DNA of 64,000 nucleotides from Spirochaetia bacterium (GTDB taxonomy: Bacteria > Spirochaetota > Spirochaetia > DSM-2461): the NCBI GenBank assembly GCA_963668315.1, contig OY764216.1, positions 1,056,001 through 1,120,000 on the forward strand, written 5' to 3'. This document shows positions 47,810-62,421 of this stretch, piece by piece; the first letter of the stretch is position 1, and every line of letters begins with the position of its first letter. The notes beneath the pieces are model-generated. The model saw nothing but the letters and a program-made list of their open reading frames with translations. It had not been told where the DNA came from and ran no database searches. The translations under genes and the position numbers were made by a program.

Positions 47810-50017
47810 CTAGTAGTGCAGTCTCACGTCCAGTGATACGGAATAGGTGGCATCCGGATTTCCCTTGGAATCGTAAACGAGGTCACCCGATGTATCCCTT
47901 TCCAGAGCCGATGCCAGAACAAGGGCTATGTTCAGATAATCGGAAACGGGATAGACCACTTCTCCCGAAAAGGTTGTCTTTTCATCTATGAAGGACAGCC
48001 CGCCCCGGCCGACCGCGTCGGCAAAACCGGTTCGGGCGTATCCGATCGTTCCATAAACGCCGATGACGGGGATGACATTGGGCTTGAGGCTCAGGCTCAT
48101 CTGAAGGTAGTCATTCTCCGGTTCAAATCCTTCGCTTGTCCATAACCAGTTATATCCTGCGGAAAAATAGAGAATCTGGGCCAGGGTCATGCCGGCCTTT
48201 CCGTAGATACCCTGGCGGGGATCCACTTCATCGGCAGTATCGATATTATCCACATATGTCAGGATTTCCTTGATTCTCTCGCCCCGCATTTTATCATAGG
48301 TGCTGTTGTAAAAGCCGTGGTAGAAAACTCCGTCGGCGTACTGATATTCCAGTTTGTAATCCAGAATCAGCAGATTGCCCATCACGCCGGCAGAAGCGCC
48401 GTAGTTTCTGGGGAAGCTGTCATCATCAAGAAAATATTCCGTGCAGGGATCTCCGTCCACTATGGGGAACATGGACGCCACATCCGTATAGAACAGCATG
48501 GTGAGGGCCGGCCGTTCAATCAGGGGGAAATCCAGGTCCAGGGCAAAGTTCACCAGCATGGGGTCTCTGTCTATAAAGGACTGATCCATATCGGGATCAA
48601 GATCCTGTGCCGGATCCAGATCGGCGGCAGCGGAAAATCCCAGGGAGAGGGGGCCGAACAGTTTGAAAGCCAGCCTGGTTCCGATCACCTGGTTGAGGGG
48701 GCGGGAAAAATCTTCTCCCACCAGCTCGAAATCCCTTCTCTCGCCGTAGGCGCCCAGGTTCAGTCCCACCTTTCTTACCGCGGGGAATTCGGAATTGTTG
48801 TTGTAGTCGTTCATGAGGATGCCATGTCCCAGATTCACCCCGTTGTAGTTCCCGAAGGCGAAGTAGAAGGGATCCCGCTGTCTGCCCCATTTGAGGTATC
48901 GGATTTTCAGGAAAAGGTCCCCGAAGGCGTCGCTTAGGATATCCAGGGTGTCGTCCTGGTCCGTACCGAATGACCACTCATTGTTTCCGGCCGGTTTATA
49001 CCAGTCGTCGGGATCGAAAAGATTCTGGTTGTAGATAAAGGGGAGATAAAGGCTGGCTTCCAGTCTTCCCGCCTGGAAAGTCGGCTGGAACAGGAGTTTG
49101 GAATAGGTAACCCCGTCCACGGAGAAGGAGCCTACTTCCATGGCCAGTACGCCTCCAAGTATTCTCATGAGAGGATCGTCGCCGGGTTCCCCGTTAAGGG
49201 CCGGGGATGCGTCCTGCGGATCTCCCTCGCCCGCGGCGGTTTCGGCGGCCGGAGCTCCCGTGTCAGAGCTCATCGTTTCTTCGGATGCGGGTTCTTCTTC
49301 AGGGGCTTCCGCTGCAGCCGCTTCCGGCTCTTCGGCGGCCGGTTCCGCTTCCACGACAGGAGCCGCGTGGCCCGGGACGTCGGCCGGATTCAGCTGAACG
49401 AACTGCACATTCGAATAGAATCGGTTCATTTCATCCTGGGTCAGCCGGGACAGGGCGAAAATCTCCGCCGCTCCGTTCACCATGTTTCCCGTGGTGACCC
49501 GGAGGGTTTCCTCGGTGGCGGTTCTGGTGAAGTCCACCGCGCCGTCGGCAACGGCCAGAACATCGTCGGCGCTTAGTACGAAGTCGGTGCCCCTTATGCC
49601 GCAGATCGTATTCCGCGAAAAGAAGCTGTACCGGTCCTCCCTGTCGGTCAGTCTGGCGATAACCGCGCGGATTTTCCCATTCTTCACAGAGATATTGCTG
49701 GAGCCGACCGATCCCTTCTGAAGGGTATCAATGGACATCAGCGTCTCCCGGGCAATTTTAAGAATGGAGCCGCTCGGTTCCAGCCGAAGTTCCGCCGAAG
49801 TGGCTCCCGTCCGCAGGGAGGAACCGGCGGGAATGTCCATTCCCAGATAGACATCGAGAAGATTGCCCGCCCCGTCGGTAACGGTCATGGCCGTCTCGTC
49901 GTCGGCATAGACCAGCACGCCCCGGGGATCGCCGGAGGTCAGATCCTGAGCCTGAATGAAGAAGAGAGAGAGGGCAAATAACAGCCCCGTCAGAACTAAT
50001 TTATTAGGAAATTTCAT
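47810..50017 (-). CDS. Exported protein: FecR-like N-domain, Ala/Glu/Pro linker, beta-rich C-domain (possible outer-membrane barrel)
   Basis: Signal peptide; FecR-like LRTG...AEL..GS....CGIRGTDF; low-complexity linker; amphipathic beta-rich C-domain ending in an aromatic residue (LHY). Confidence 0.7.
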   Translation of the reverse strand: MKFPNKLVLTGLLFALSLFFIQAQDLTSGDPRGVLVYADDETAMTVTDGAGNLLDVYLGMDIPAGSSLRTGATSAELRLEPSGSILKIARETLMSIDTLQKGSVGSSNISVKNGKIRAVIARLTDREDRYSFFSRNTICGIRGTDFVLSADDVLAVADGAVDFTRTATEETLRVTTGNMVNGAAEIFALSRLTQDEMNRFYSNVQFVQLNPADVPGHAAPVVEAEPAAEEPEAAAAEAPEEEPASEETMSSDTGAPAAETAAGEGDPQDASPALNGEPGDDPLMRILGGVLAMEVGSFSVDGVTYSKLLFQPTFQAGRLEASLYLPFIYNQNLFDPDDWYKPAGNNEWSFGTDQDDTLDILSDAFGDLFLKIRYLKWGRQRDPFYFAFGNYNGVNLGHGILMNDYNNNSEFPAVRKVGLNLGAYGERRDFELVGEDFSRPLNQVIGTRLAFKLFGPLSLGFSAAADLDPAQDLDPDMDQSFIDRDPMLVNFALDLDFPLIERPALTMLFYTDVASMFPIVDGDPCTEYFLDDDSFPRNYGASAGVMGNLLILDYKLEYQYADGVFYHGFYNSTYDKMRGERIKEILTYVDNIDTADEVDPRQGIYGKAGMTLAQILYFSAGYNWLWTSEGFEPENDYLQMSLSLKPNVIPVIGVYGTIGYARTGFADAVGRGGLSFIDEKTTFSGEVVYPVSDYLNIALVLASALERDTSGDLVYDSKGNPDATYSVSLDVRLHY

Positions 50018-50026
50018 GTCAGCCTC

Positions 50027-51448
50027 CTAGTTTGTTGCTATGGTCGTCATCAGCTTGGCCGATGTGTCGAATTCATCGGTAGACGGATTGTACCGGAAAT
50101 CGTATCCAAGGGTTATGACCGCCGGTCCGGTTCGGTAATTGACGGCGGCGCCGATGACGGCTCCCACCGGATGAAACGTATCCGGGAAGGAGGTAATGTA
50201 TTTCTTGTCGTAATAGGCATCCAGGGAGACATTGGGGATAATTCCCTCTCCCAGGGTGAACATCATGGCCACGTGGGGGAACTGGGCTTCGCTGTAGTTC
50301 AGCTTGTCCTCTTCGTCCGTGGTGGGTACTCCGTCGAAGGGGCCTTCAATCATGGCGTTGAAAACGATGGTATCCTGCAGCAGGGAGAATCCCGTGGAGG
50401 CCAGCCATCCCACCATGGCGGGAGAACCGCTGACGGCTCCGGAAAGAACGGCATATTTCTGGGCCCGGTAGAGGTCGTAGGATCGATCGAAATAGGTAGG
50501 AATGAAGTTTTCGCCCAGTATGCGAATCTGAGCGGTGTAGGGAATGACTTTGATCAGTCTTCCCCCGAATCCGATCATTTCTCCCGTGGCCGTGTCGCTG
50601 TTGTCCCCGGTCCCCGGCTGGGCGGCGAAGGCGGTAAAAGCGGCCAGATTGATAATCTCATTGGAAAGGAGGGGCTGAATCAGGTCGGCTCCCCATGTCA
50701 GGGCCGTATCGATGGGGGTCGTCAGCTTATCTCCGCTGACGGAGTAGATTGTATCGAGCTCGGTAAAATACTCCTCCCTGTAGGCCGGATCTCTGTCGGC
50801 GGCTATGGTAAAGCCCACTTCCAGGTTCTGGAGCAGCCGGTTCTCCGACAGAATGAGAGGTCTCAGGAAAAGGCGTGATCCCACCACATCCATGGCGGCC
50901 ATGTTTCCCACGAAGGTTTCGATTCCCAGCAGGGGAAAGTTGACCAGAGCCCCGTCAAAGTCAAGGGCCAGTCCCAGGAGGCGGCTATCGGGCAGAAACA
51001 TGGTATTGGCGTAGTTTCCCATAATGAAGCCCGTTCCCAGGGTCCCGTTGTTTATGGAGCCGAACTGGGCATAGAGGGGATCTCCCTTCCGGCCGTATCT
51101 CACATAGGCGAATTTGGAGAGGTAGAGCTCCAGCCAGGCGCTCAGGGTATCGTCCTCAGGCACCCAGTCCTCGTCTCTGAAGTAAAGAAACTCACCCCCG
51201 GAGCCTGAACGGACATGGAAAGAGAGGTCAAGGGCCACGCCCCATTTCCCTATGGAAAATTCCGGGAGAACTCCGATCTTCTGATAGGATATCTCCTCCC
51301 CGTCTGCGCCGTCGTTGAATGTCTGGACTCCCAGCCCGATTCCCATATTGAAAGCAAAGGCTGAGTCTTCCCCTTCCTGTGCCGAGAGAACCGGGGGAGC
51401 TAAAAAGAGGGCTGTTATGATGATTAACCAAGTGTGCCTTATTTTCAT
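50027..51448 (-). CDS. Exported beta-rich protein paralogous to the C-domain of the downstream gene
   Basis: Signal peptide; KFAYVRYGRKGDPLYAQFG...TLGTGFIMGNYAN aligns with KIRYLKWGRQRDPFYFAFG...NLGHGILMNDYNN. Confidence 0.72.
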   Translation of the reverse strand: MKIRHTWLIIITALFLAPPVLSAQEGEDSAFAFNMGIGLGVQTFNDGADGEEISYQKIGVLPEFSIGKWGVALDLSFHVRSGSGGEFLYFRDEDWVPEDDTLSAWLELYLSKFAYVRYGRKGDPLYAQFGSINNGTLGTGFIMGNYANTMFLPDSRLLGLALDFDGALVNFPLLGIETFVGNMAAMDVVGSRLFLRPLILSENRLLQNLEVGFTIAADRDPAYREEYFTELDTIYSVSGDKLTTPIDTALTWGADLIQPLLSNEIINLAAFTAFAAQPGTGDNSDTATGEMIGFGGRLIKVIPYTAQIRILGENFIPTYFDRSYDLYRAQKYAVLSGAVSGSPAMVGWLASTGFSLLQDTIVFNAMIEGPFDGVPTTDEEDKLNYSEAQFPHVAMMFTLGEGIIPNVSLDAYYDKKYITSFPDTFHPVGAVIGAAVNYRTGPAVITLGYDFRYNPSTDEFDTSAKLMTTIATN

Positions 51449-53820: not shown

Positions 53821-56313
53821 ATGAAAGTTGTTATCATAGGAGGAGTGGCAGGCGGTGCTACTGCGGCTGCCCGGTTACGGCGGCAGGATGAGAAAGCGGA
53901 AATTATCATGTATGAGAAGGGCGAGTATATCAGCTATGCCAACTGCGGCCTTCCCTATTACATCGGAGATACCATTTCGGAGCGGGAGCGCCTTTTTGTT
54001 CAGACTCCGGAGAGCTTCAACGGTATCCTGAATGTTAATGTGAAAACCCGTCACGAAGTTTTAAAAATCAATCGGGAAGCAAAAAGCGTTACCCTTAAGA
54101 ATCTTGCTACAGGTGACACCTATGATGACAGCTATGATAAGCTGATCCTTTCTCCCGGGGCGGAACCCATCAAACCGCCCATTCCCGGAATCGACTCAAA
54201 ACGGGTCTACACCATGCGCAATGTTACCGATACGGATGCCATTAAAACAGCGGTGGAAGAGGGGAAACCCAAAAGAGCCGTTGTCATAGGCGCCGGTTTC
54301 ATCGGGCTGGAAATGGCGGAGAACCTTCATGAAAAGGGGATTTTCGTCACCGTCGTCGAGGCGGTTGACCAGGTCATGGGCATTCTCGATTATGAGATGG
54401 CCGCTGAGGTCCACTCCCAGCTGAAACAGAAGGGCGTTGAGCTCTACCTGAGCGACGGGGTCACCAAATTCGAGGATACGGACAACCTGGTCAGGCTGAC
54501 TCTGCAGAGCGGCAAGGTCCTGGATGCGGATATGGTCATCCTTTCCATCGGAGTCAAGCCGGACACGAAACTGGCTTCCGAAGCAGGATTGACCATAGGG
54601 AAATTCGGCGGCATCTGGGTCAACGACAAGATGCAGACCAGTGATCCCGATATTTTCTCCCTGGGTGATGCCATTGAATTCCCCAGTCCTCTGACCGGTG
54701 ACTCTCTTCGTACTCCCCTGGCCGGACCGGCCAACAAGCAGGGACGCATCGTGGCGGATAACGTCATCAAGGCCATGGCGGGGGAGGAACTTATTTCGTT
54801 CAAGGGTTCCCTCGGAACGGGTATCGCCAAGGTTTTTGACCTGACGGTGGCCTCTACGGGACTTTCGGAGAAGCAGCTGGCCCGCCTTGGAAAGACCGAT
54901 GTCAAGTCACTCATTATTCACGGCAGCTCCCATGCGGGATACTATCCCGATGCCCACCCGCTGACCGTAAAAATCGTATACGACAGGGAGGGAAAGCTTT
55001 ACGGGGCCCAGGCCGTGGGATACGACGGTGTGGATAAGCGAATTGATATGATTGCCGCGGTTATGGGGATGGGCGGCACGGTTTATGATCTTCAGGAAAT
55101 AGAGCATGCCTACGCGCCGCCCTTTTCCAGCGCCAAAGACCCGGTGAATATCGCCGGTTTTACCGCGGAGAATATTCTTAAGGGCCGGTCCACCCATATC
55201 ACCTGGAGAGAGCTGAGAGATCTTCCCGAGGAGGAGAGGTTCATCCTGGATGTGAGAACCCCCGATGAGTTCGGACTGGGAACCATATCGGGAGCCTACA
55301 ATATTCCCCAGCCGGAAGTTCGGAGCCGTCTGGGAGAGATCCCGCGGGACAGAAAGATTGTCCTGCTCTGCGGAGTGGGCAAGCGTGCCTACATGGTGGA
55401 ACGTATACTTAAGCAGGAAGGTTTTGACGCCTGTATTCTCTCCGGCGGGCTCAAGATCTATTCGGCGGCCACGGCCGTTCAGAGTAATGAAAACCTCTGG
55501 GAAAGCCAGCAGGTCATCAGGCCTCTGAAACAGGGAGAGGCGACCAACGAGAGTCTGCCCCTTTCCATTGACGTACAGACCATCGAAGTGGATGCATGCG
55601 GTCTTCAGTGCCCCGGCCCCATTCTCAAGCTGAAAACCGAAATTGAAAAGCTTCATCCCGGAGAAATGCTCAGGGAAGTGGCTACCGATCCGGGATTCGC
55701 CAAGGATGTGTACGCCTGGGCCAAGATGACCGGCAACCATGTCATTTCCGTTGAACAGAAAGGCCCGAAAGTTTCGGCCCTCGTGCAGAGAGGCAAACCC
55801 AAAGGGGCCGCCCCTGCCGCGGGCCAGGCTGCCAATCTGCCTCAGGACGGAACCAGCATGGTCGTCTTTTCCGATGATATGGACAAAGCCCTCGCCTCCT
55901 TTGTTATTGCCAACGGGGCTGCGGCTGCGGGAAAAAAAGTAACCCTTTTCTTTACCTTTTGGGGTTTATCGATTATAAAGAAAGTAGGACCTGTTCGTGT
56001 TAAGAAGGATTTCATGGGAAAGATGTTCGGTATGATGCTTCCCAATCACAGCAAAAAGCTGGGCCTTTCCAAGATGAACATGGGCGGCCTGGGGGCTGTC
56101 ATGATGAGGTCCCGTATGAAGGCCCAGGGAGTTGACTCCCTTGAGACGATGATTCAGACAGCGGTGGATGCCGGCGTCAAGCTGGTCGCCTGCCAGATGT
56201 CTATGGATGTTATGGGTGTTAAGAAGGAAGAGTTGTTGGATTGCGTGGAGATTGGCGGAGTCGCCAGTTTCCTCGAATCCACCGATGACGCACAGGCAAC
56301 TTTGTTCATTTAA
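53821..56313 (+). CDS. CoA-disulfide/persulfide reductase fused to rhodanese, TusA/SirA and DsrE domains
   Basis: GGVAGG, SYANCGLPY, YAPPF; rhodanese LDVRTPDEF..LCGVGKRA; TusA DACGLQCPGP; DsrE FFTFWGL..ACQMSMDVMG. Confidence 0.92.
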   Translation: MKVVIIGGVAGGATAAARLRRQDEKAEIIMYEKGEYISYANCGLPYYIGDTISERERLFVQTPESFNGILNVNVKTRHEVLKINREAKSVTLKNLATGDTYDDSYDKLILSPGAEPIKPPIPGIDSKRVYTMRNVTDTDAIKTAVEEGKPKRAVVIGAGFIGLEMAENLHEKGIFVTVVEAVDQVMGILDYEMAAEVHSQLKQKGVELYLSDGVTKFEDTDNLVRLTLQSGKVLDADMVILSIGVKPDTKLASEAGLTIGKFGGIWVNDKMQTSDPDIFSLGDAIEFPSPLTGDSLRTPLAGPANKQGRIVADNVIKAMAGEELISFKGSLGTGIAKVFDLTVASTGLSEKQLARLGKTDVKSLIIHGSSHAGYYPDAHPLTVKIVYDREGKLYGAQAVGYDGVDKRIDMIAAVMGMGGTVYDLQEIEHAYAPPFSSAKDPVNIAGFTAENILKGRSTHITWRELRDLPEEERFILDVRTPDEFGLGTISGAYNIPQPEVRSRLGEIPRDRKIVLLCGVGKRAYMVERILKQEGFDACILSGGLKIYSAATAVQSNENLWESQQVIRPLKQGEATNESLPLSIDVQTIEVDACGLQCPGPILKLKTEIEKLHPGEMLREVATDPGFAKDVYAWAKMTGNHVISVEQKGPKVSALVQRGKPKGAAPAAGQAANLPQDGTSMVVFSDDMDKALASFVIANGAAAAGKKVTLFFTFWGLSIIKKVGPVRVKKDFMGKMFGMMLPNHSKKLGLSKMNMGGLGAVMMRSRMKAQGVDSLETMIQTAVDAGVKLVACQMSMDVMGVKKEELLDCVEIGGVASFLESTDDAQATLFI

Positions 56314-56333: not shown

Positions 56334-56371
56334 AAAAAACGCCCCGGACCAAGTTCACGGGGCGTTTTTTT
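56334..56371. terminator. Bidirectional intrinsic terminator
   Basis: AAAAAACGCCCCG...CGGGGCGTTTTTT between convergent genes; overlaps the capA-like stop. Confidence 0.85.
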
Positions 56372-57311
56372 GGGGCTCCTCCTCTACGGTTGTCCCATCC
56401 GGCTTCAAGCTGACAAAGCTTTCCCGGTACTTTACCCGCCGTCCCCTTACTCCGAATTCCGCTTCCAGAAGGAGTCCTCTGCGGGTCTCCGGGGAAAAGT
56501 ATTGATCGAAGATGAAATTCCCCAGGGAGTAATACACCGGGACTCCGCCGATAATCTCGCGGGGCTGTATGACATGGGGATGGCTCCCGACAACGAGATC
56601 CGCTCCGGCCTCGATGAATGTTTTTGCCAGGGTCCTCTGCCGTACCGAAGGTTCCGTCCTGTACTCCTCCCCCCAGTGGCAGTACATAATCTGGATATCG
56701 CTCCGGTGAACTTTCTCCTTAAGCGTCTCAAGGGCGGTCTCCTCTCCCCCTTGTGTGAATTGGTTGTAATTGATGAAGCACAGCCTTATACCGCCTTTTT
56801 CCAGAAGGAGATAATTTTTTCCTTCGTCCTTCCCGTTATCTCCGAACCAGCGCAGACCGTATTTTTCAAGGTACCGGTAAGTCTCCTCTCTCTCTTCCTT
56901 TCCGAAAGCACCCATATGGTTGTTTCCCGTGTTGAGAATGGCAATCCCGTTTCTCCTGAGCAGTTCCAGAGCCGCCGGTTCCATTCGGAGAAGAAAATTT
57001 TCCCGACTGCCGTAGGCCGTGCCGCGGCTCAGGGAGGGATTTGTGCTGACGGGAGCTTCCAGGTTGGCGATGATGAAGTCCGCATCGGCGAGGGAGGGGA
57101 GAGGGAGGGGCAGAATGAAACCGTAGGGATTCTCATCATCCGGGGAGTATTCGGCCCGTGTTCTGAAGTACCGGTCCATCATAATGTCACCGGCGAAGAC
57201 AATTTTTACTTTTCTGCCGGTTATCCCCCGGGGGATAAGCAGACCGGCGGCGAGAAAGGGTATAATAAAAAGGGCGTAAAAAAGGTATCTCTTGCGTAAT
57301 TCTACTTTCAT
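56355..57311 (-). CDS. CapA/PGA_cap-family metallophosphoesterase, membrane-anchored
   Basis: N-terminal TM; FAGDIM, ANLEAP, GNNH, HWGEEY, GSHPHV, YSLGNFIFDQ. Confidence 0.9.
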   Translation of the reverse strand: MKVELRKRYLFYALFIIPFLAAGLLIPRGITGRKVKIVFAGDIMMDRYFRTRAEYSPDDENPYGFILPLPLPSLADADFIIANLEAPVSTNPSLSRGTAYGSRENFLLRMEPAALELLRRNGIAILNTGNNHMGAFGKEEREETYRYLEKYGLRWFGDNGKDEGKNYLLLEKGGIRLCFINYNQFTQGGEETALETLKEKVHRSDIQIMYCHWGEEYRTEPSVRQRTLAKTFIEAGADLVVGSHPHVIQPREIIGGVPVYYSLGNFIFDQYFSPETRRGLLLEAEFGVRGRRVKYRESFVSLKPDGTTVEEEPQKNAP

Positions 57312-57356
57312 GTTTATTATTCCCAGATTGTATCAGAATCATGGGGGGAGAGAGAA

Positions 57357-60083
57357 TTGGATAAGAGTCGATTTATCGTACTATGCTTTTTTGTTGTCCT
57401 GTTAGGGGCATGCGGAGTCCAGGAGAAGGAAACGTCCGCGGATGTAAGGGAGAATGCTGTCGTCGAGGGACCTGCTTTGCCTCCCCCGACTCCCGCGGCA
57501 GAGGAGCAGGAAGCCGCCCCCGCACCGGAAGAGGCTGAGACCGTTTCCTTTGATCTTGCCCTTGTCGGTGCCGACGGAGGCCGGGGAGATGCGGCCGAGG
57601 CCCACGCCGGTTATCTTGATGACGATATGACCTTTATGAATCTGGCCACCGAATGGGAAGGCGATACGGCGGTGGTGGGAAGCAAGGTCGCGCGGTTCTA
57701 TCCCGGTGTGCGGGTGGAAAAGGATGAGGATCTGCCGGCACTTCCCGAGGGAATTCCTCTCCCCTTTGCCGCTCTGATACCCATTAGGGAGAGACTGTCC
57801 AATCCTGAGGGGGATTATTACGGATTTTTCGAATTTGAGGATAACTACAACTATTTTTATTTGACCGAATGGGAAGGGCAGCAGGGAATCGTCTTCGGGG
57901 CGGATCTGGCGGGGCTGAATGCTTCGACAGAGAAAAATCTCCTGACCGCTTCCATGTATGCCGGCGGAAGCCGTTATGAGGAGTTTCCCCCCTATGCGGG
58001 TTATTATCCCCTGGCGGATAATGAGATTGATACTCTGGAGAAAAATCGTTTGGCCCTTCAGCGTGTCCGCAAGAAGGAGTATTACCTTAGCCTGGAAAGG
58101 CCTGACGATATGATTTCCCTTTATATGAATACGGCCCGGGACAAGTATACGCCCCTGTTCATCACCACCGACCTTGTCTCCCAGGGACTGCATCTTTTCT
58201 TCGATCAGTTTCTGCAGCAGACGGAGGAGAAAATCTTCATTCCCCGATTAGGCCGGCTGACCGGAGTCTTTCTTGACCGTCTGGAAGAATCGGATGTGAC
58301 GGAGGACGCCGATGATGCCTATGGTAAGGCCGTGAATACCCTCATAACCTATTTTCAGGTCGCCGACTGTCTCATCAAACTGGCTCCGGAAATCCATATT
58401 GCCAAAGAGGACTGGGGGGAGGAGAAGATCGAATATACTGAACCTGACCGGGACACGGTGCTGGCCCTTTATCCCGAAAAGGTACGGGAGGAGGTGGAGC
58501 TTATCTGCAACGCCGCCGGTTCGGCCCTTTCTCCTTCGTTTCAGTACGAGGAGGATTATTCCCAATACAAACCAAGAGGACATTATACCAAAAACGGCGT
58601 ACTCGAGGCTTACTTCAGGACAATGATGTGGTTCGGACGGATTCATTTCTATATGAGCGACGGACAGGAGGCCGTCATATCCGATGACAGCGAGGCCATG
58701 ACTCAGGGAAGTGCCGCCTCTCTCTCTCTGGACACTCTTCCCATGGTGGCGGTGGCAACGGATATCGCCGTGAAAAATCCCGACCTCTTTCAGGACTGGA
58801 AGCTGTTGTTCGATCCCATAACCGACCTGATCGGGATGAGCGATGATCTCTCCTTCTATGAGGCCATGCCCTTTTTCGAGGGGCTGCATATCGAGGACCT
58901 GAGAGCCTGGACCAACGATGTGGAACAGGTTTCTGTGGCGATTCTCAAGGCCCGGGAAGAACTCCGGTCTCCTCTTATCGCCGGTAATTCTGTCTGGGAG
59001 GCGCCGTCGGGGGAGGGGCGCACACCGCCGATGGGGTGGCGTCTTTTCGGCCAGCGTTTTACCTGGGATTCCTATGTCCACCAGCTTGTCTCGCCCCCCC
59101 GGCTGATGAGCCGGGATATCGTACGGGGGCTGGACATCATGAAGGCCTTCGGTTCCCGTACGGCGGACAATCTGCTACGGATTTCCGATTATCCGGAAAT
59201 GGCGGGACTGGAAGAGACTCTGGGAAAAATAGAGGAGGAATTTGAGGCGAAGGATGAAGCCTTCTGGAAGGAAAGCTACTACAACAGCACCCTGGCCATG
59301 ATCCGTGCCCAGGCCTGTTTCGAGCCGGGAGCGGGGTTCTACTTTACCGAGTCCCCCCTCTGGGGAATTAAATCCCAGATTTCGGCCCACGGCACATGGG
59401 CCGCTCTCCGTCATGATACCATTCTTTATGTCAAGCAGGTCTATGCCGAAAGAGCGGGAGACGGCGACTTCAACCCCACATTCCGTACCGAACCCTTGCC
59501 GCTTCCGGTTCACTATATTGAACCGAACCTTCCCTTTTTCGACGCGGCTCTGTCTGCGGTCAGGGAAATTCGGGAATCGGGGAGGAAATACGGGTTTATC
59601 GGTGAGGATTACGAAGAGAAGCTTGCTTCCTGGGATAAGCTGCTCGCGCGGATGACCGATATCGCCTATCTGGAATATAAGGACGAAGAGGTGGCTCCGA
59701 ATGATGTGGAATGGATAAGGACCATTCCCCAGCAGCTGGTTCCTCTGGTTCTCGCCCCCGAAATGAACTACGCATCCTACGTGGAGGACGAGGACATTCT
59801 CAAGAGCGCCATCGTGGCCGATGTTTTTACGAATGCGGAGCAGGGTGTCGCCCTGGAAGTGGGAACGGGAATTCCCTACCGCTTGCTGGTGGCTTTGAAC
59901 GACGGTCAGGGAAGGAAGAGGATCGCCGTGGGATTCACCTTCAGTTACTTTGAGTTTCTTGTGGGACAGTCGGAGCGTATGACCAATGAAGAGTGGAGGG
60001 AAATCGTCTATCCCGGAGATGAAAATATGGATGAGTACCTTCCGTTCTGGAGCAAGGGGCTCATGCTGGAAGCCCGTCCGTAA
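57357..60083 (+). CDS. DUF3160-domain lipoprotein
   Basis: Lipobox LLGAC; PLFITTD, EDYSQYKPRGHYT, YFRTMMWFGR, GQRFT.DS, WAALRHDTILYVKQ, VADVFT, FSYFEF, RMTNEEWR. Confidence 0.85.
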   Translation: MDKSRFIVLCFFVVLLGACGVQEKETSADVRENAVVEGPALPPPTPAAEEQEAAPAPEEAETVSFDLALVGADGGRGDAAEAHAGYLDDDMTFMNLATEWEGDTAVVGSKVARFYPGVRVEKDEDLPALPEGIPLPFAALIPIRERLSNPEGDYYGFFEFEDNYNYFYLTEWEGQQGIVFGADLAGLNASTEKNLLTASMYAGGSRYEEFPPYAGYYPLADNEIDTLEKNRLALQRVRKKEYYLSLERPDDMISLYMNTARDKYTPLFITTDLVSQGLHLFFDQFLQQTEEKIFIPRLGRLTGVFLDRLEESDVTEDADDAYGKAVNTLITYFQVADCLIKLAPEIHIAKEDWGEEKIEYTEPDRDTVLALYPEKVREEVELICNAAGSALSPSFQYEEDYSQYKPRGHYTKNGVLEAYFRTMMWFGRIHFYMSDGQEAVISDDSEAMTQGSAASLSLDTLPMVAVATDIAVKNPDLFQDWKLLFDPITDLIGMSDDLSFYEAMPFFEGLHIEDLRAWTNDVEQVSVAILKAREELRSPLIAGNSVWEAPSGEGRTPPMGWRLFGQRFTWDSYVHQLVSPPRLMSRDIVRGLDIMKAFGSRTADNLLRISDYPEMAGLEETLGKIEEEFEAKDEAFWKESYYNSTLAMIRAQACFEPGAGFYFTESPLWGIKSQISAHGTWAALRHDTILYVKQVYAERAGDGDFNPTFRTEPLPLPVHYIEPNLPFFDAALSAVREIRESGRKYGFIGEDYEEKLASWDKLLARMTDIAYLEYKDEEVAPNDVEWIRTIPQQLVPLVLAPEMNYASYVEDEDILKSAIVADVFTNAEQGVALEVGTGIPYRLLVALNDGQGRKRIAVGFTFSYFEFLVGQSERMTNEEWREIVYPGDENMDEYLPFWSKGLMLEARP

Positions 60084-60974
60084 ATGATGAGAGTAAAAGA
60101 GCTGCTGCTCTGCTTCTCCCTTTTGCTCCTGGCCGGATGCCGGGAGGAAGGGATAGGGGCCGCGGAAGACCCCTACCTTACCTGGGACCTCAAGGGGGAT
60201 TCCTATCCCTCCTTGCCGGACGTGGAGATGGGACGTCTTCCCGAGGGGGAAGCTTTTCCTGTCGCAGGCATCGTTAGCCACCACCTTCTGGCGGGGGAGC
60301 TGATCGATGACTGGTTCCGTGAGCTGGCCCGCAGGCGGAAGGTCGAGCGTTTTTTCATCCTCTCTCCCCGGCACTGGGATCTCGGGACGGGAGACTACTC
60401 CCTGACCGCCGAAAGCTGGCTGACCGCACGGGGCAAAGTGAAAGCCGATGGGGACGTGGTCGATCGGCTCGCGGAGGAACTTGACTGTGAAGTGGACAGG
60501 GAGGTCTTTGTCATGGAGCACGGAATCGAGACTCTCATCCCCTTTATCAAGAAATATTTCCCCGATGCGAAGGTTGTTCCCCTCAACTACCGGGGGGAGG
60601 CCCCTGTCAATATGCCCGTGGTCAACCGGCTGTGGAAAAGCCTTTCCCCCTATTTTGAAGGGGCCGGGGCAGAGGAGAATTTTCTTCTTATCTCCAGTGA
60701 TTTCGCCCATCATGGGGATTTTGAAGGCACCCGCATAAAGGATGAGCGGACGGATCGGTTTATGGAGAATCCGGGCCGTACAAACTGGATTTTCGCCGGC
60801 TGTGATAACCGCCCCGGCATTTATCTCCTGGCTTCCCTGGCCGATCGGATGACATCCCCCGAAATGGGCATTCTCTACCACAGTAATTCCTACGAATTGT
60901 CCGGAAAGGATGCCCGGGACATCACCAGTTATTTTTTTACTTTTCTCTTTGAGAGACAGGAAGGCGCACTCTGA
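60084..60974 (+). CDS. Memo-family (AmmeMemoRadiSam protein B-like) lipoprotein
   Basis: Lipobox LLAGC; AGIVSHH, LSPRH, EHGIE, ISSDFAH, GCD, TSYF Memo/LigB-fold motifs. Confidence 0.82.
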   Translation: MMRVKELLLCFSLLLLAGCREEGIGAAEDPYLTWDLKGDSYPSLPDVEMGRLPEGEAFPVAGIVSHHLLAGELIDDWFRELARRRKVERFFILSPRHWDLGTGDYSLTAESWLTARGKVKADGDVVDRLAEELDCEVDREVFVMEHGIETLIPFIKKYFPDAKVVPLNYRGEAPVNMPVVNRLWKSLSPYFEGAGAEENFLLISSDFAHHGDFEGTRIKDERTDRFMENPGRTNWIFAGCDNRPGIYLLASLADRMTSPEMGILYHSNSYELSGKDARDITSYFFTFLFERQEGAL

Positions 60975-62421
60975 CGGAGGGAGCCCGGTAGAACCTGACT
61001 CCCGGCTGTTTCCATCCTTCTTCTCCCAGTCCGCTTTTCCTTGAGAGTGTACGGAGAAACTGACGGCGGGAGAGATTCCTTTCCTGGGCCAGAGAGGCCT
61101 GAAGGAGGGTCCGCTCTCCCTCGTATTCCAGTATAAGGCTGTCCAGAGAGGGTATGAAGTCTTCCGGGGAGTCAAGGGGAGTAAAATCTCCGAAGAGAGT
61201 TACTTCCACGTCCAGATCCTCCAGCTCATCGGCTCTGACAGGTTCATAGCGGGGATCATGGAACGCCGCCTCGGCTACGGCCGTGCCTATCATGGCCGAC
61301 GGGTTTTCAATACCCCGGTAGTAGGCAATACAGCCCCGGTCCTCATAACGTGAGATAAACCGCACGGCCAGCCCCCGTTCCGCTCCGGAAAGGGCAGGCC
61401 CGGAATCGGGTTCACCGCTTTTCATTCCGGATAAATCTTCCGTGAGAATTTGGGCGGCCTGCCGGGCCAGTTTCTCAAGCTGCTTTTCGGGAAACTCCCG
61501 GCGAAGTTCTTCATTCTCCCTCCGGGCCCGCAGCATATTCCCGGTGATCTCCGCCATCGTATCATCGGTGGGAATCAACGGAAGGGAGATAAGTTCCTGC
61601 CAGAAAAGGGCGGGGGCCATATCCCAGAGGGCTGCTCCGGGTGCGAAAAAAGCGGAGAAGTCCGTTTTTATTCCCCTTTCCTTCCACTCTGACCATCGGC
61701 GTAACTCCTCATTTCCCTCCGGCCGGGGGCTCATTTCACCTCCGGCCATTAGAATCCTGCGATTACTGCCGAGCCTTTTCAGCGAGTGGGCGAACCACTT
61801 CCAGGCCAGAGAGGCTTCCGGCTGATAGGCGGCCGAAAAGGCCACGGTCAGGACAGGGGGATTCAGTTTATCGATAAAATCCAGCATTTCATCAAGAAAA
61901 TCCTCGGGAGAGTCTCCCGGATCGACGGTCAGAATATCCAGATCCAGACTCAGAGCCACCGGGCCAGAGAATTGTCCCGCAGCGTAAAGATCATTCAGGT
62001 CGGACCAGTCTATGATGTGCACGGCCTCTCTTTTTCTCGCCCCTATGTGGGGGGGATCCTCTCCGGTTTTTCGGTTGAGCCAGGCCAGCCGGGCATTGCG
62101 GTTGGGGAGAAGGAGATCCCGCCCCGAGACCCAGTACACGTCTCCTATCATTCCCCCGTCGACCAGCCCTCCCAGCCAGTTAAAGCTCGTAACGTCCCAT
62201 TCCCCGGGGGGAAGATAAAGGGAAGAGGGGCCGGGGCCCATATCGTGGTGATAATCGAGGAGGATCAGGGTCGCCGGGGCCTCCTTTTCCAGATGGCTGA
62301 GCAGATAGGGGTAGGAGCCGGAATGCCTGTCGCTGACGAAAACTTCTCCCCCGGGTCGGCAGGAGAGAAGCAGTACAAGGGGAAGAAGGATTAGTATTTT
62401 TTGAGTCATGGATAATTTCAA
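60937..62421 (-). CDS. Lipoprotein: arginase/UPF0489-like metallo domain fused to a C-terminal AMMECR1 domain
   Basis: Lipobox LLLSC (start 62421 TTG or 62409 ATG); LLDYHHD and SLDLD; AMMECR1 motifs RGCI, AAFHDPRY.PV...EL.DL.VEVT, FL..L.RKSGL. Confidence 0.78.
   Translation of the reverse strand: MKLSMTQKILILLPLVLLLSCRPGGEVFVSDRHSGSYPYLLSHLEKEAPATLILLDYHHDMGPGPSSLYLPPGEWDVTSFNWLGGLVDGGMIGDVYWVSGRDLLLPNRNARLAWLNRKTGEDPPHIGARKREAVHIIDWSDLNDLYAAGQFSGPVALSLDLDILTVDPGDSPEDFLDEMLDFIDKLNPPVLTVAFSAAYQPEASLAWKWFAHSLKRLGSNRRILMAGGEMSPRPEGNEELRRWSEWKERGIKTDFSAFFAPGAALWDMAPALFWQELISLPLIPTDDTMAEITGNMLRARRENEELRREFPEKQLEKLARQAAQILTEDLSGMKSGEPDSGPALSGAERGLAVRFISRYEDRGCIAYYRGIENPSAMIGTAVAEAAFHDPRYEPVRADELEDLDVEVTLFGDFTPLDSPEDFIPSLDSLILEYEGERTLLQASLAQERNLSRRQFLRTLSRKSGLGEEGWKQPGVRFYRAPSVRVRLPVSQREK

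Follow-up and report, generated by a model that had tools for sequence, protein, structure and literature searches.

The window analysed here, a stretch of 64,000 nucleotides from a Spirochaetia bacterium (assembly GCA_963668315.1, contig OY764216.1, positions 1,056,001 to 1,120,000), contains four adjacent genes whose products are predicted to be exported. The capA gene (56355..57311, minus strand) codes for a protein of the CapA/PGA_cap family with a calcineurin fold and an N-terminal membrane anchor. Its start lies 45 bp from that of a divergent gene for a DUF3160 lipoprotein of 908 amino acids (57357..60083, plus strand). Immediately after the DUF3160 stop codon begins the co-directional gene of a Memo-family lipoprotein (60084..60974, plus strand). 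The convergent fourth gene (60937..62421, minus strand), whose 3' end overlaps that of the Memo gene by 38 bp (60937-60974), encodes a lipoprotein in which an arginase-fold domain is fused to AMMECR1. As the four genes are located on two strands, they are not one operon and do not form a single transcript. The core of this module consists of DUF3160 followed by Memo, plus AMMECR1; CapA is an accessory part.

The four families had been named in an initial annotation of the window, and the assignments were borne out. All open reading frames are present and exceed their Pfam cut-offs, with 176.7 bits for PGA_cap (PF09587; cut-off 27), 552.3 bits for DUF3160 (PF11369; cut-off 25), 58 bits for Memo and 75.1 bits for AMMECR1 (cut-off 25). 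Among the NCBIfam models, TIGR04336 (AmrB/Memo) was reached by the Memo protein with 74.4 bits (cut-off 26), and TIGR04335 (AmrA/AMMECR1) was missed by the fusion with 70 bits (cut-off 99).

The predicted export signals are likewise present in the sequences: DUF3160 contains the lipobox LGAC (Cys19), Memo LAGC (Cys19) and the AMMECR1 fusion LLSC (Cys21), and CapA possesses an N-terminal hydrophobic stretch. Signals were called by means of a purpose-made hydropathy and lipobox rule and not with a trained predictor. According to this rule, 107 of 120 DUF3160 homologues and 29 of 36 homologues of the fusion are positive; six fusions without a signal appear to be cut at the N-terminus. Among the Memo representatives, 49 of 150 are positive, 75 others have a hydrophobic N-terminus, and 26 have neither. 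The background in the genome is 195 of 3124 long open reading frames. Export and lipid anchoring are therefore predicted for DUF3160, Memo and the AMMECR1 fusion.

Recurrence of the module in spirochaetes

Conservation of the gene set was assessed with 51 related loci in four sets; the relatives with names belong to Spirochaetota. Set A comprises 13 genome loci that were found with the fusion as query, and contains DUF3160 and Memo in 12 of them, in two different arrangements, and CapA in five. Set B is the least biased: among an even phylum sample of 261 genomes, DUF3160 is present in 25, and 19 of the other 24 contributed 20 DUF3160 loci; omitted were four from a genus that had already been sampled, and a fragment. 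Here, Memo follows directly downstream in 13 loci; AMMECR1 occurs in seven, CapA in two and the arginase fold in none. For set C, an arginase-fold profile was searched against 401 genomes; of the 15 others with a match, 13 supplied 14 loci, and two that seemed to repeat set A were omitted. Memo occurs in ten of these loci, DUF3160 and AMMECR1 in nine each, and CapA in one. Set D adds four short contigs from the same family. Altogether, Memo was found in 39 loci, 32 of which contain AMMECR1, eight CapA, and 23 the arginase fold, the last count being inflated by the search basis of sets A and C. Since related genomes are not independent, such co-occurrence counts overstate the support. Of the four genes noted initially, the DUF3160/Memo/AMMECR1 core is thus retained, and CapA is not a regular member.

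Memo and AMMECR1 genes are arranged tail-to-tail in 27 of the 32 loci (23 of these overlap by 7-74 bp), AMMECR1 is divergent on the DUF3160 side in four, and in one, L047, both are fused to a Memo-AMMECR1 lipoprotein. A separate co-directional AMMECR1 gene occurs in none of the 32. The tail-to-tail layout persists across many families and could allow antisense coupling. In a tree, 33 rows of module AMMECR1s group in a single clade (FastTree 99), and one short-aligned row falls outside it. At module locus L062 (2798-5305), a frame of 835 amino acids has a divergent C-terminal AMMECR1, and no arginase-fold match was detected in it.

The initial annotation had further noted the lack of a radical SAM gene in the window and had suggested that CapA and DUF3160 replace it. 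CxxxCxxC is indeed not contained in any open reading frame of the window of at least 100 amino acids, and AmrS (TIGR04337) was found neither in the window nor in any of the 51 related loci. CxxxCxxC motifs occur in reading frames of six related loci, and the three of these that were scanned are not radical SAM matches. A search for a separate canonical set identified an intact amrA-amrS-amrB cluster without signal peptides in the same genome (C1 3.894-3.896 Mb), with AmrS 2.8 Mb from the window. AmrS is also found elsewhere in 25 of 30 related genomes tested, and in 12 of the 12 rated high quality. Because of these separate copies, and since CapA accompanies only eight of 39 Memos, a replacement of the radical SAM enzyme is not supported. 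In contrast, the proposal of a distinct exported Memo-AMMECR1 partnership is supported: it recurs with DUF3160 across spirochaete families, has no adjacent radical SAM gene, and both proteins form their own clades.

The view that the triad of AMMECR1, Memo and radical SAM enzyme is normally cytoplasmic applies to the canonical cluster of this genome, but apparently not to all loci. Among ten other AMMECR1 loci that were fetched, L181 (1192-3890) and L182 (778-3430) encode Cys-type Memo-AMMECR1 fusions with clear signal peptides beside an AmrS whose N-terminus appears twin-arginine-like on inspection of the motif; L185 (464-3053) has the same arrangement, with a less clear signal. Apparently, these loci encode a fully exported AmmeMemoRadiSam triad, including the radical SAM enzyme.

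The genes that flank the module vary (56 of 127 listed flanks were covered in the main scan, others were scanned apart), and a conserved transporter or regulator was not found among the 56 flanking proteins scanned. Genes for C39-like peptidases or transglutaminase-like proteins flank six module loci of several families (L059:2385-4333, L060:9307-11246, L063:3265-4122, L047, L168 and L169), among them transglutaminase-like lipoproteins; three of the C39 matches are below the cut-off. In the window, a link to the adjacent RND pump gene was rejected, because this gene is not conserved beside the other loci. On the left side, a gene at 53821-56313 (plus strand) codes for a CoA-disulfide-reductase-like protein that comprises rhodanese, TusA and DsrE domains, and a similar reductase adjoins the module only in L171. 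Between this gene and the convergent capA lies a hairpin with A and T runs on either side (56334..56370, strand not assigned). The folding energy of the segment 56320-56380 is -28.1 kcal/mol (z -4.08), and none of 200 shuffled sequences was as stable. The hairpin is likely a bidirectional terminator that marks the left edge of the module. A promoter scan remained at chance level (three found, 3.2 expected). Farther away (47810-51448, minus strand), two neighbouring exported proteins of 735 and 473 amino acids have similar beta-rich C-terminal parts and no Pfam match, and are outer-membrane-like.

Predicted active sites of the encoded proteins

The fusion protein consists of an OspR/UPF0489-type ureohydrolase-fold domain (residues about 23-291; 61549..62355, minus strand), which had not been recognized in the initial annotation, and the AMMECR1 domain (residues 322-479; 60985..61458, minus strand). 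In the structure model (pLDDT 90), the best match of residues 23-291 is the peptide arginase OspR (VIA Z 14.4 over 190 residues), followed by arginases (Z 10.4). A profile that includes unfused relatives also matches OspR by sequence (E 2.2e-5) with all three motifs aligned, and Atlas features assign the domain to UPF0489 at 0.89-0.90. The Pfam model PF12640 (UPF0489; cut-off 27 bits) does not match the window protein, and the best unfused relative reaches 22 bits. In OspR, three motifs provide six Mn ligands, as given in PMC10028609. These correspond to H33, D56, H58, D60, D160 and D162 of the fusion, which are invariant in ten of ten aligned sequences and kept in 49-55 of 55 fusions. At the place of OspR Glu11, which precedes the first His and was proposed to hold the guanidino group (PMC10028609), the window protein contains an Arg (Arg32), as do 48 of the 55 fusions; the preceding residue is an Asp in 50 of 55. 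This Arg argues against arginine as the substrate. We newly assign this half to the OspR/UPF0489-type peptide-arginase fold, predicted to contain all six metal ligands.

For the AMMECR1 half, the motifs RGChG and DxRa were predicted to form the active site (PMC2034487). R362-G363-C364 and D389-P-R391-Y392 (DPRY) are invariant in the 36 full-length homologues, and the final Gly of RGChG is replaced by Ala or Ser. A complex prediction for Memo and the fusion gave 'no answer' (score 0.00) and speaks neither for nor against a pairing. The arginase-fold gene also occurs unfused beside DUF3160 in L047 and L167-L169. Unfused exported UPF0489/OspR-like proteins are encoded in L047 (2499-3398), L167-L169, L176, L177, L179 and L180; four of them lie outside the module, and three of these four follow a gene of similar size, with a weak DUF4139 match in two cases.

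Human MEMO1 binds Fe or Cu via H49, H81 and C244 (PMC11081632). A broader alignment matches MEMO1 (PDB 7KQ8) with E 2.9e-22; with the window Memo alone or a 15-row alignment, MEMO1 was not reached among the PDB sequences. His66 and His97 are the equivalents of His49 and His81, those of H131, D189 and H192 are retained, and gap-free extension of the anchored alignment places Asp241 at the position of Cys244. This position is occupied by Asp in 147 of 150 Memo representatives, and a neighbouring Cys240 is present in only 44. Asp241 would give rise to a LigB-like metal site of two His and one carboxylate. In the tree, module Memos, Memo-CapA fusions and other exported Memos are split from 13 canonical Memos (FastTree 99; long branches call for caution). 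The exported Memos, newly described here, therefore form a clade of their own in this tree, with a predicted Asp ligand in place of the metal-binding Cys. A third Memo of the genome (G000:C1:333784-334632; L045:7784-8632; 0.334 Mb) is cytoplasmic, has no AMMECR1 and degenerate metal motifs, and is located behind a MYG1-like gene.

The gene for DUF3160 is single-copy in the genome. The model of its product (pLDDT 87) contains an SH3b-like beta domain (residues about 101-193; 57657..57935, plus strand), predicted to bind to the cell wall, which matches SH3b domains of NlpC/P60 proteins, LytB and endolysins with middling scores (VIA Z 5.0-6.2), and the mostly helical DUF3160 domain (residues 221-889; 58017..60023, plus strand). 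Forty positions, many of them polar, are conserved across the spirochaete, distant and metagenome sets; within the DUF3160 domain they include D400, Q403, R407, H409, Y410, R567, D571, H686, Q694 and E722. Such a pattern would be expected of an enzyme. In PMC4158269, DUF3160 appears as a 'secreted enzyme' without detail. A Foldseek search with the whole 908-residue model found no match at E 0.001, and a wide search yielded only small SH3-like and generic helical matches. As the model was searched uncut and not by domain, the missing fold match does not indicate a new fold.

The only solved sequence relative of the window CapA is MslH (PDB 8GQ9), a Ca-dependent C-terminal peptide epimerase (PMC10406935), and the same role was proposed for CapA (PMC8179263). 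Six of the eight named active-site residues of MslH are kept: D11, E44, N87, H88, H259 and H295 correspond to D42, E85, N131, H132, H212 and H246. Of the His/Asp dyads, the equivalents of H295/D11 and H88 are preserved, and the place of D91 is taken by Ala135; 35 of 37 other rows have D or N at this position. The window CapA may therefore be impaired. All 15 aligned CapAs have a Gly at the place of His261, and the MslH model NF038314 was missed (37.8 versus 700 bits). Synthesis of poly-gamma-glutamate (CapBCA) was rejected as a function, since searches with PF14102 and TIGR04012 identified neither capB nor capC in the genome (G000, 97% complete). The four top BLAST matches of the window CapA in the comparison set are Memo-CapA fusions, with which it also groups in a quick tree, and its nearest relative among 401 genomes of the class sits in module locus L175. 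The other module CapAs form a separate group in this tree, which has long branches and suggests that CapA was recruited more than once, from at least two separate lineages.

Other lineages likewise show links between pairs of DUF3160, exported Memo and CapA, as follows from Memo-CapA fusions and DUF3160-CapA neighbours. The exported-Memo profile search yielded 4690 representatives, and the best 150 of these include 26 long Memos; 15 are Memo-CapA fusions, all with an N-terminal hydrophobic stretch and one from Candidatus Uhrbacteria, and one is a Memo-AMMECR1 fusion. In 18 of 80 metagenome CapA loci, a count without base-rate control, DUF3160 is located directly upstream of CapA. The metagenome scan for these 80 loci had been seeded with a Memo-CapA fusion and gave CapA-only matches, with no fusion among them. 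In the Memo-free metagenome loci L076, L083, L090, L094, L096, L114, L123 and L131, DUF3160 is followed by a CapA with a C-terminal extension, which is FG-GAP-like in four.

Proposed function and competing explanations

Tentatively, and with somewhat less than even confidence, we propose that the exported spirochaete enzyme set acts jointly on an envelope peptide, most likely the stem peptides of peptidoglycan or a peptide attached to these. On the basis of conserved lipoboxes, export is predicted for DUF3160, Memo and the AMMECR1 fusion, which would be lipid-anchored, and the SH3b-like domain of DUF3160 may hold the set at the cell wall. The predicted Memo metal site (His66/His97/Asp241) and the conserved Cys364 of AMMECR1 could then carry out connected steps on a common substrate that do not involve radical-SAM chemistry; this linkage is suggested by the near-constant adjacency of Memo and AMMECR1 and by their fusion in one locus. 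In some lineages, a two-metal hydrolase of the OspR type might additionally strip a side chain of an amidino, amide or acyl group, and an enzyme of the CapA/MslH type might act on the C-terminal residue of the peptide. We infer both a common substrate of the parts and its identity as an envelope peptide. This reading is favoured by the anchor domain of a cell-wall-binding type, by the peptide-modifying nearest characterised relatives of both accessory families, OspR (PMC10028609) and MslH (PMC10406935, PMC8179263), by the peptidase-like flanks at six loci, and by the lack of a conserved transporter among the flanking proteins scanned.

Several observations weigh against this proposal. The module is patchy, unlike a core step of cell-wall synthesis: DUF3160 is found in none of three other genomes of the genus, and in few genomes of the phylum sample. 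Seven of the 20 DUF3160 loci of set B lack any partner, the module is missing at four of the 14 arginase-fold loci of set C, and AMMECR1 is missing beside DUF3160-Memo in seven of 39 loci; five of these genomes carry a single AMMECR1, which is of the canonical type. The two-strand arrangement does not imply co-expression, the SH3b match has a Z of only 5-6, and the DUF3160-CapA count has no base rate to be compared with. Arg32 and Ala135 deviate from OspR and MslH, and the DUF3160 domain has no assigned chemistry. The peptidoglycan of spirochaetes contains ornithine, which is added in the cytoplasm. This and the Arg32 substitution argue against a plain conversion of Arg to Orn.

The patchy spread would also be in agreement with scavenging, where the exported enzymes degrade an external compound (a modified peptide, a nucleoside, or an aromatic or guanidino compound) and the product is taken up, perhaps to be finished by the AmrABS proteins of the cytoplasm. 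Catabolic roles are frequent among ureohydrolase and dioxygenase-related folds, Asp241 would yield a LigB-like site, and AmrS is present elsewhere in most of the related genomes, including all those rated high quality. However, since 32 of 38 genomes of this order contain AMMECR1 in any case, its co-presence says little, and the flanking proteins scanned include no conserved transporter or regulator. The host spirochaetes are mostly anaerobic, for which an O2-using dioxygenase is a poor fit. We consider scavenging unlikely.

Quite improbable is a periplasmic maturase set resembling those for peptides made by ribosomes and modified after translation (RiPPs), which would convert Arg to ornithine and epimerize the C-terminus of a secreted peptide or of a surface protein whose gene lies elsewhere. 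An OspR-like domain with all six metal ligands, an MslH-like CapA and C39-like peptidases beside some loci are in line with it. However, the gaps in the window cluster (at most 45 bp) leave no space for a precursor gene, the places of Glu11 and His261 contain Arg and Gly, respectively, and both the arginase fold and CapA are accessory. The chances are about equally slight that DUF3160-Memo is the sole functional unit, and that AMMECR1, the arginase fold and CapA are passengers in a jointly inherited block. The two-strand layout, the overlapping 3' ends that could lock genes together, and the relatedness of the genomes make this conceivable, but the linkage outlasts rearrangement (four of 32 divergent, one fused), and CapA was drawn from at least two lineages of the quick tree and is fused to Memo elsewhere. 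Least probable of all is extracytoplasmic handling of iron or copper, or redox protection, with Memo as a metal binder like MEMO1 (PMC11081632): in the window, the module is adjoined by genes for an RND pump and a CoA-disulfide-reductase-like protein, but the pump is not seen beside other loci and a similar reductase only at L171, the cysteine ligand is exchanged for Asp, and AMMECR1, the arginase fold and CapA would be left unexplained.

The envelope-peptide proposal can be extended to a more specific pathway, which we regard as rather unlikely: side-chain hydrolysis of the OspR type and C-terminal epimerisation of the MslH type, both resembling RiPP maturation, an Asp-type Memo metal site and the AMMECR1 cysteine would be assembled on DUF3160 at the spirochaete cell wall for peptide tailoring in the periplasm, and the Memo-CapA fusions and DUF3160-CapA pairs of candidate-phyla bacteria would be reduced forms. 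If it were true, Memo and AMMECR1 would here for the first time act on a soluble, assayable substrate without a radical SAM enzyme, and a catalytic function would fall to DUF3160, for whose fold there is no solved match. For three conserved proteins of humans, MEMO1, AMMECR1 and C5orf22 (UPF0489), the molecular function has not been settled. This bacterial module contains relatives of each, two being parts of a single polypeptide; their predicted catalytic residues are intact, and an oxygen-sensitive radical SAM enzyme is not among the partners. Signal-free soluble forms could be purified and screened on cell-wall and peptide substrates, which makes the question of Memo and AMMECR1 testable and could possibly reveal the function of DUF3160.

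Comparison with known systems

The literature searched does not describe the module; Burroughs et al. 2019, which is cited for Memo-AMMECR1 systems in PMC7159879 and may list such contexts, was outside that search. New here are the arginase-fold assignment, the exported Memo clade with its Asp, the ties of CapA from other lineages, and the finding that AMMECR1 is never a separate co-directional gene.

Like AmmeMemoRadiSam (TIGR04335, TIGR04336, TIGR04337), the module combines Memo and AMMECR1 as adjacent or fused genes, and keeps the RGC and DxR-aromatic motifs of AMMECR1 and the His49/His81 equivalents of Memo. It differs in the lipoboxes, the lack of AmrS in all 51 loci, the tail-to-tail layout, the Asp in place of Cys244, the separate clades of both proteins (FastTree 99), the partners DUF3160, arginase fold and CapA, and in its coexistence with a canonical copy. 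Without AmrS, with TIGR04335 missed and Cys replaced by Asp, the module is not a member of AmmeMemoRadiSam. Export by itself is not unique to it, given the predicted signals of L181 and L182.

With OspR and UPF0489 (PF12640, C5orf22; PDB 8BRP; PMC10028609), the arginase-fold domain shares the fold, the three motifs and the six metal ligands. In contrast, it is predicted to be exported and is fused to AMMECR1, contains an Arg at the place of Glu11, remains under the Pfam cut-off, and no precursor peptide was seen. The window CapA belongs to the family of MslH and CapA/PgsA (PF09587; PDB 8GQ9) and keeps six of the eight named active-site residues (PMC10406935, PMC8179263). It differs from MslH by the Ala at Asp91 and the Gly at His261 and is far under the cut-off of the MslH model; compared to CapA/PgsA, neither capB nor capC was found in the genome. 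The window Memo has the two His ligands and the H131/D189/H192 equivalents in common with MEMO1 (PDB 7KQ8; PMC11081632) and LigB-type extradiol dioxygenases. Unlike MEMO1 it is predicted to be exported, and its third ligand, the predicted Asp, is nearer to the Glu of LigB than to the Cys of MEMO1.

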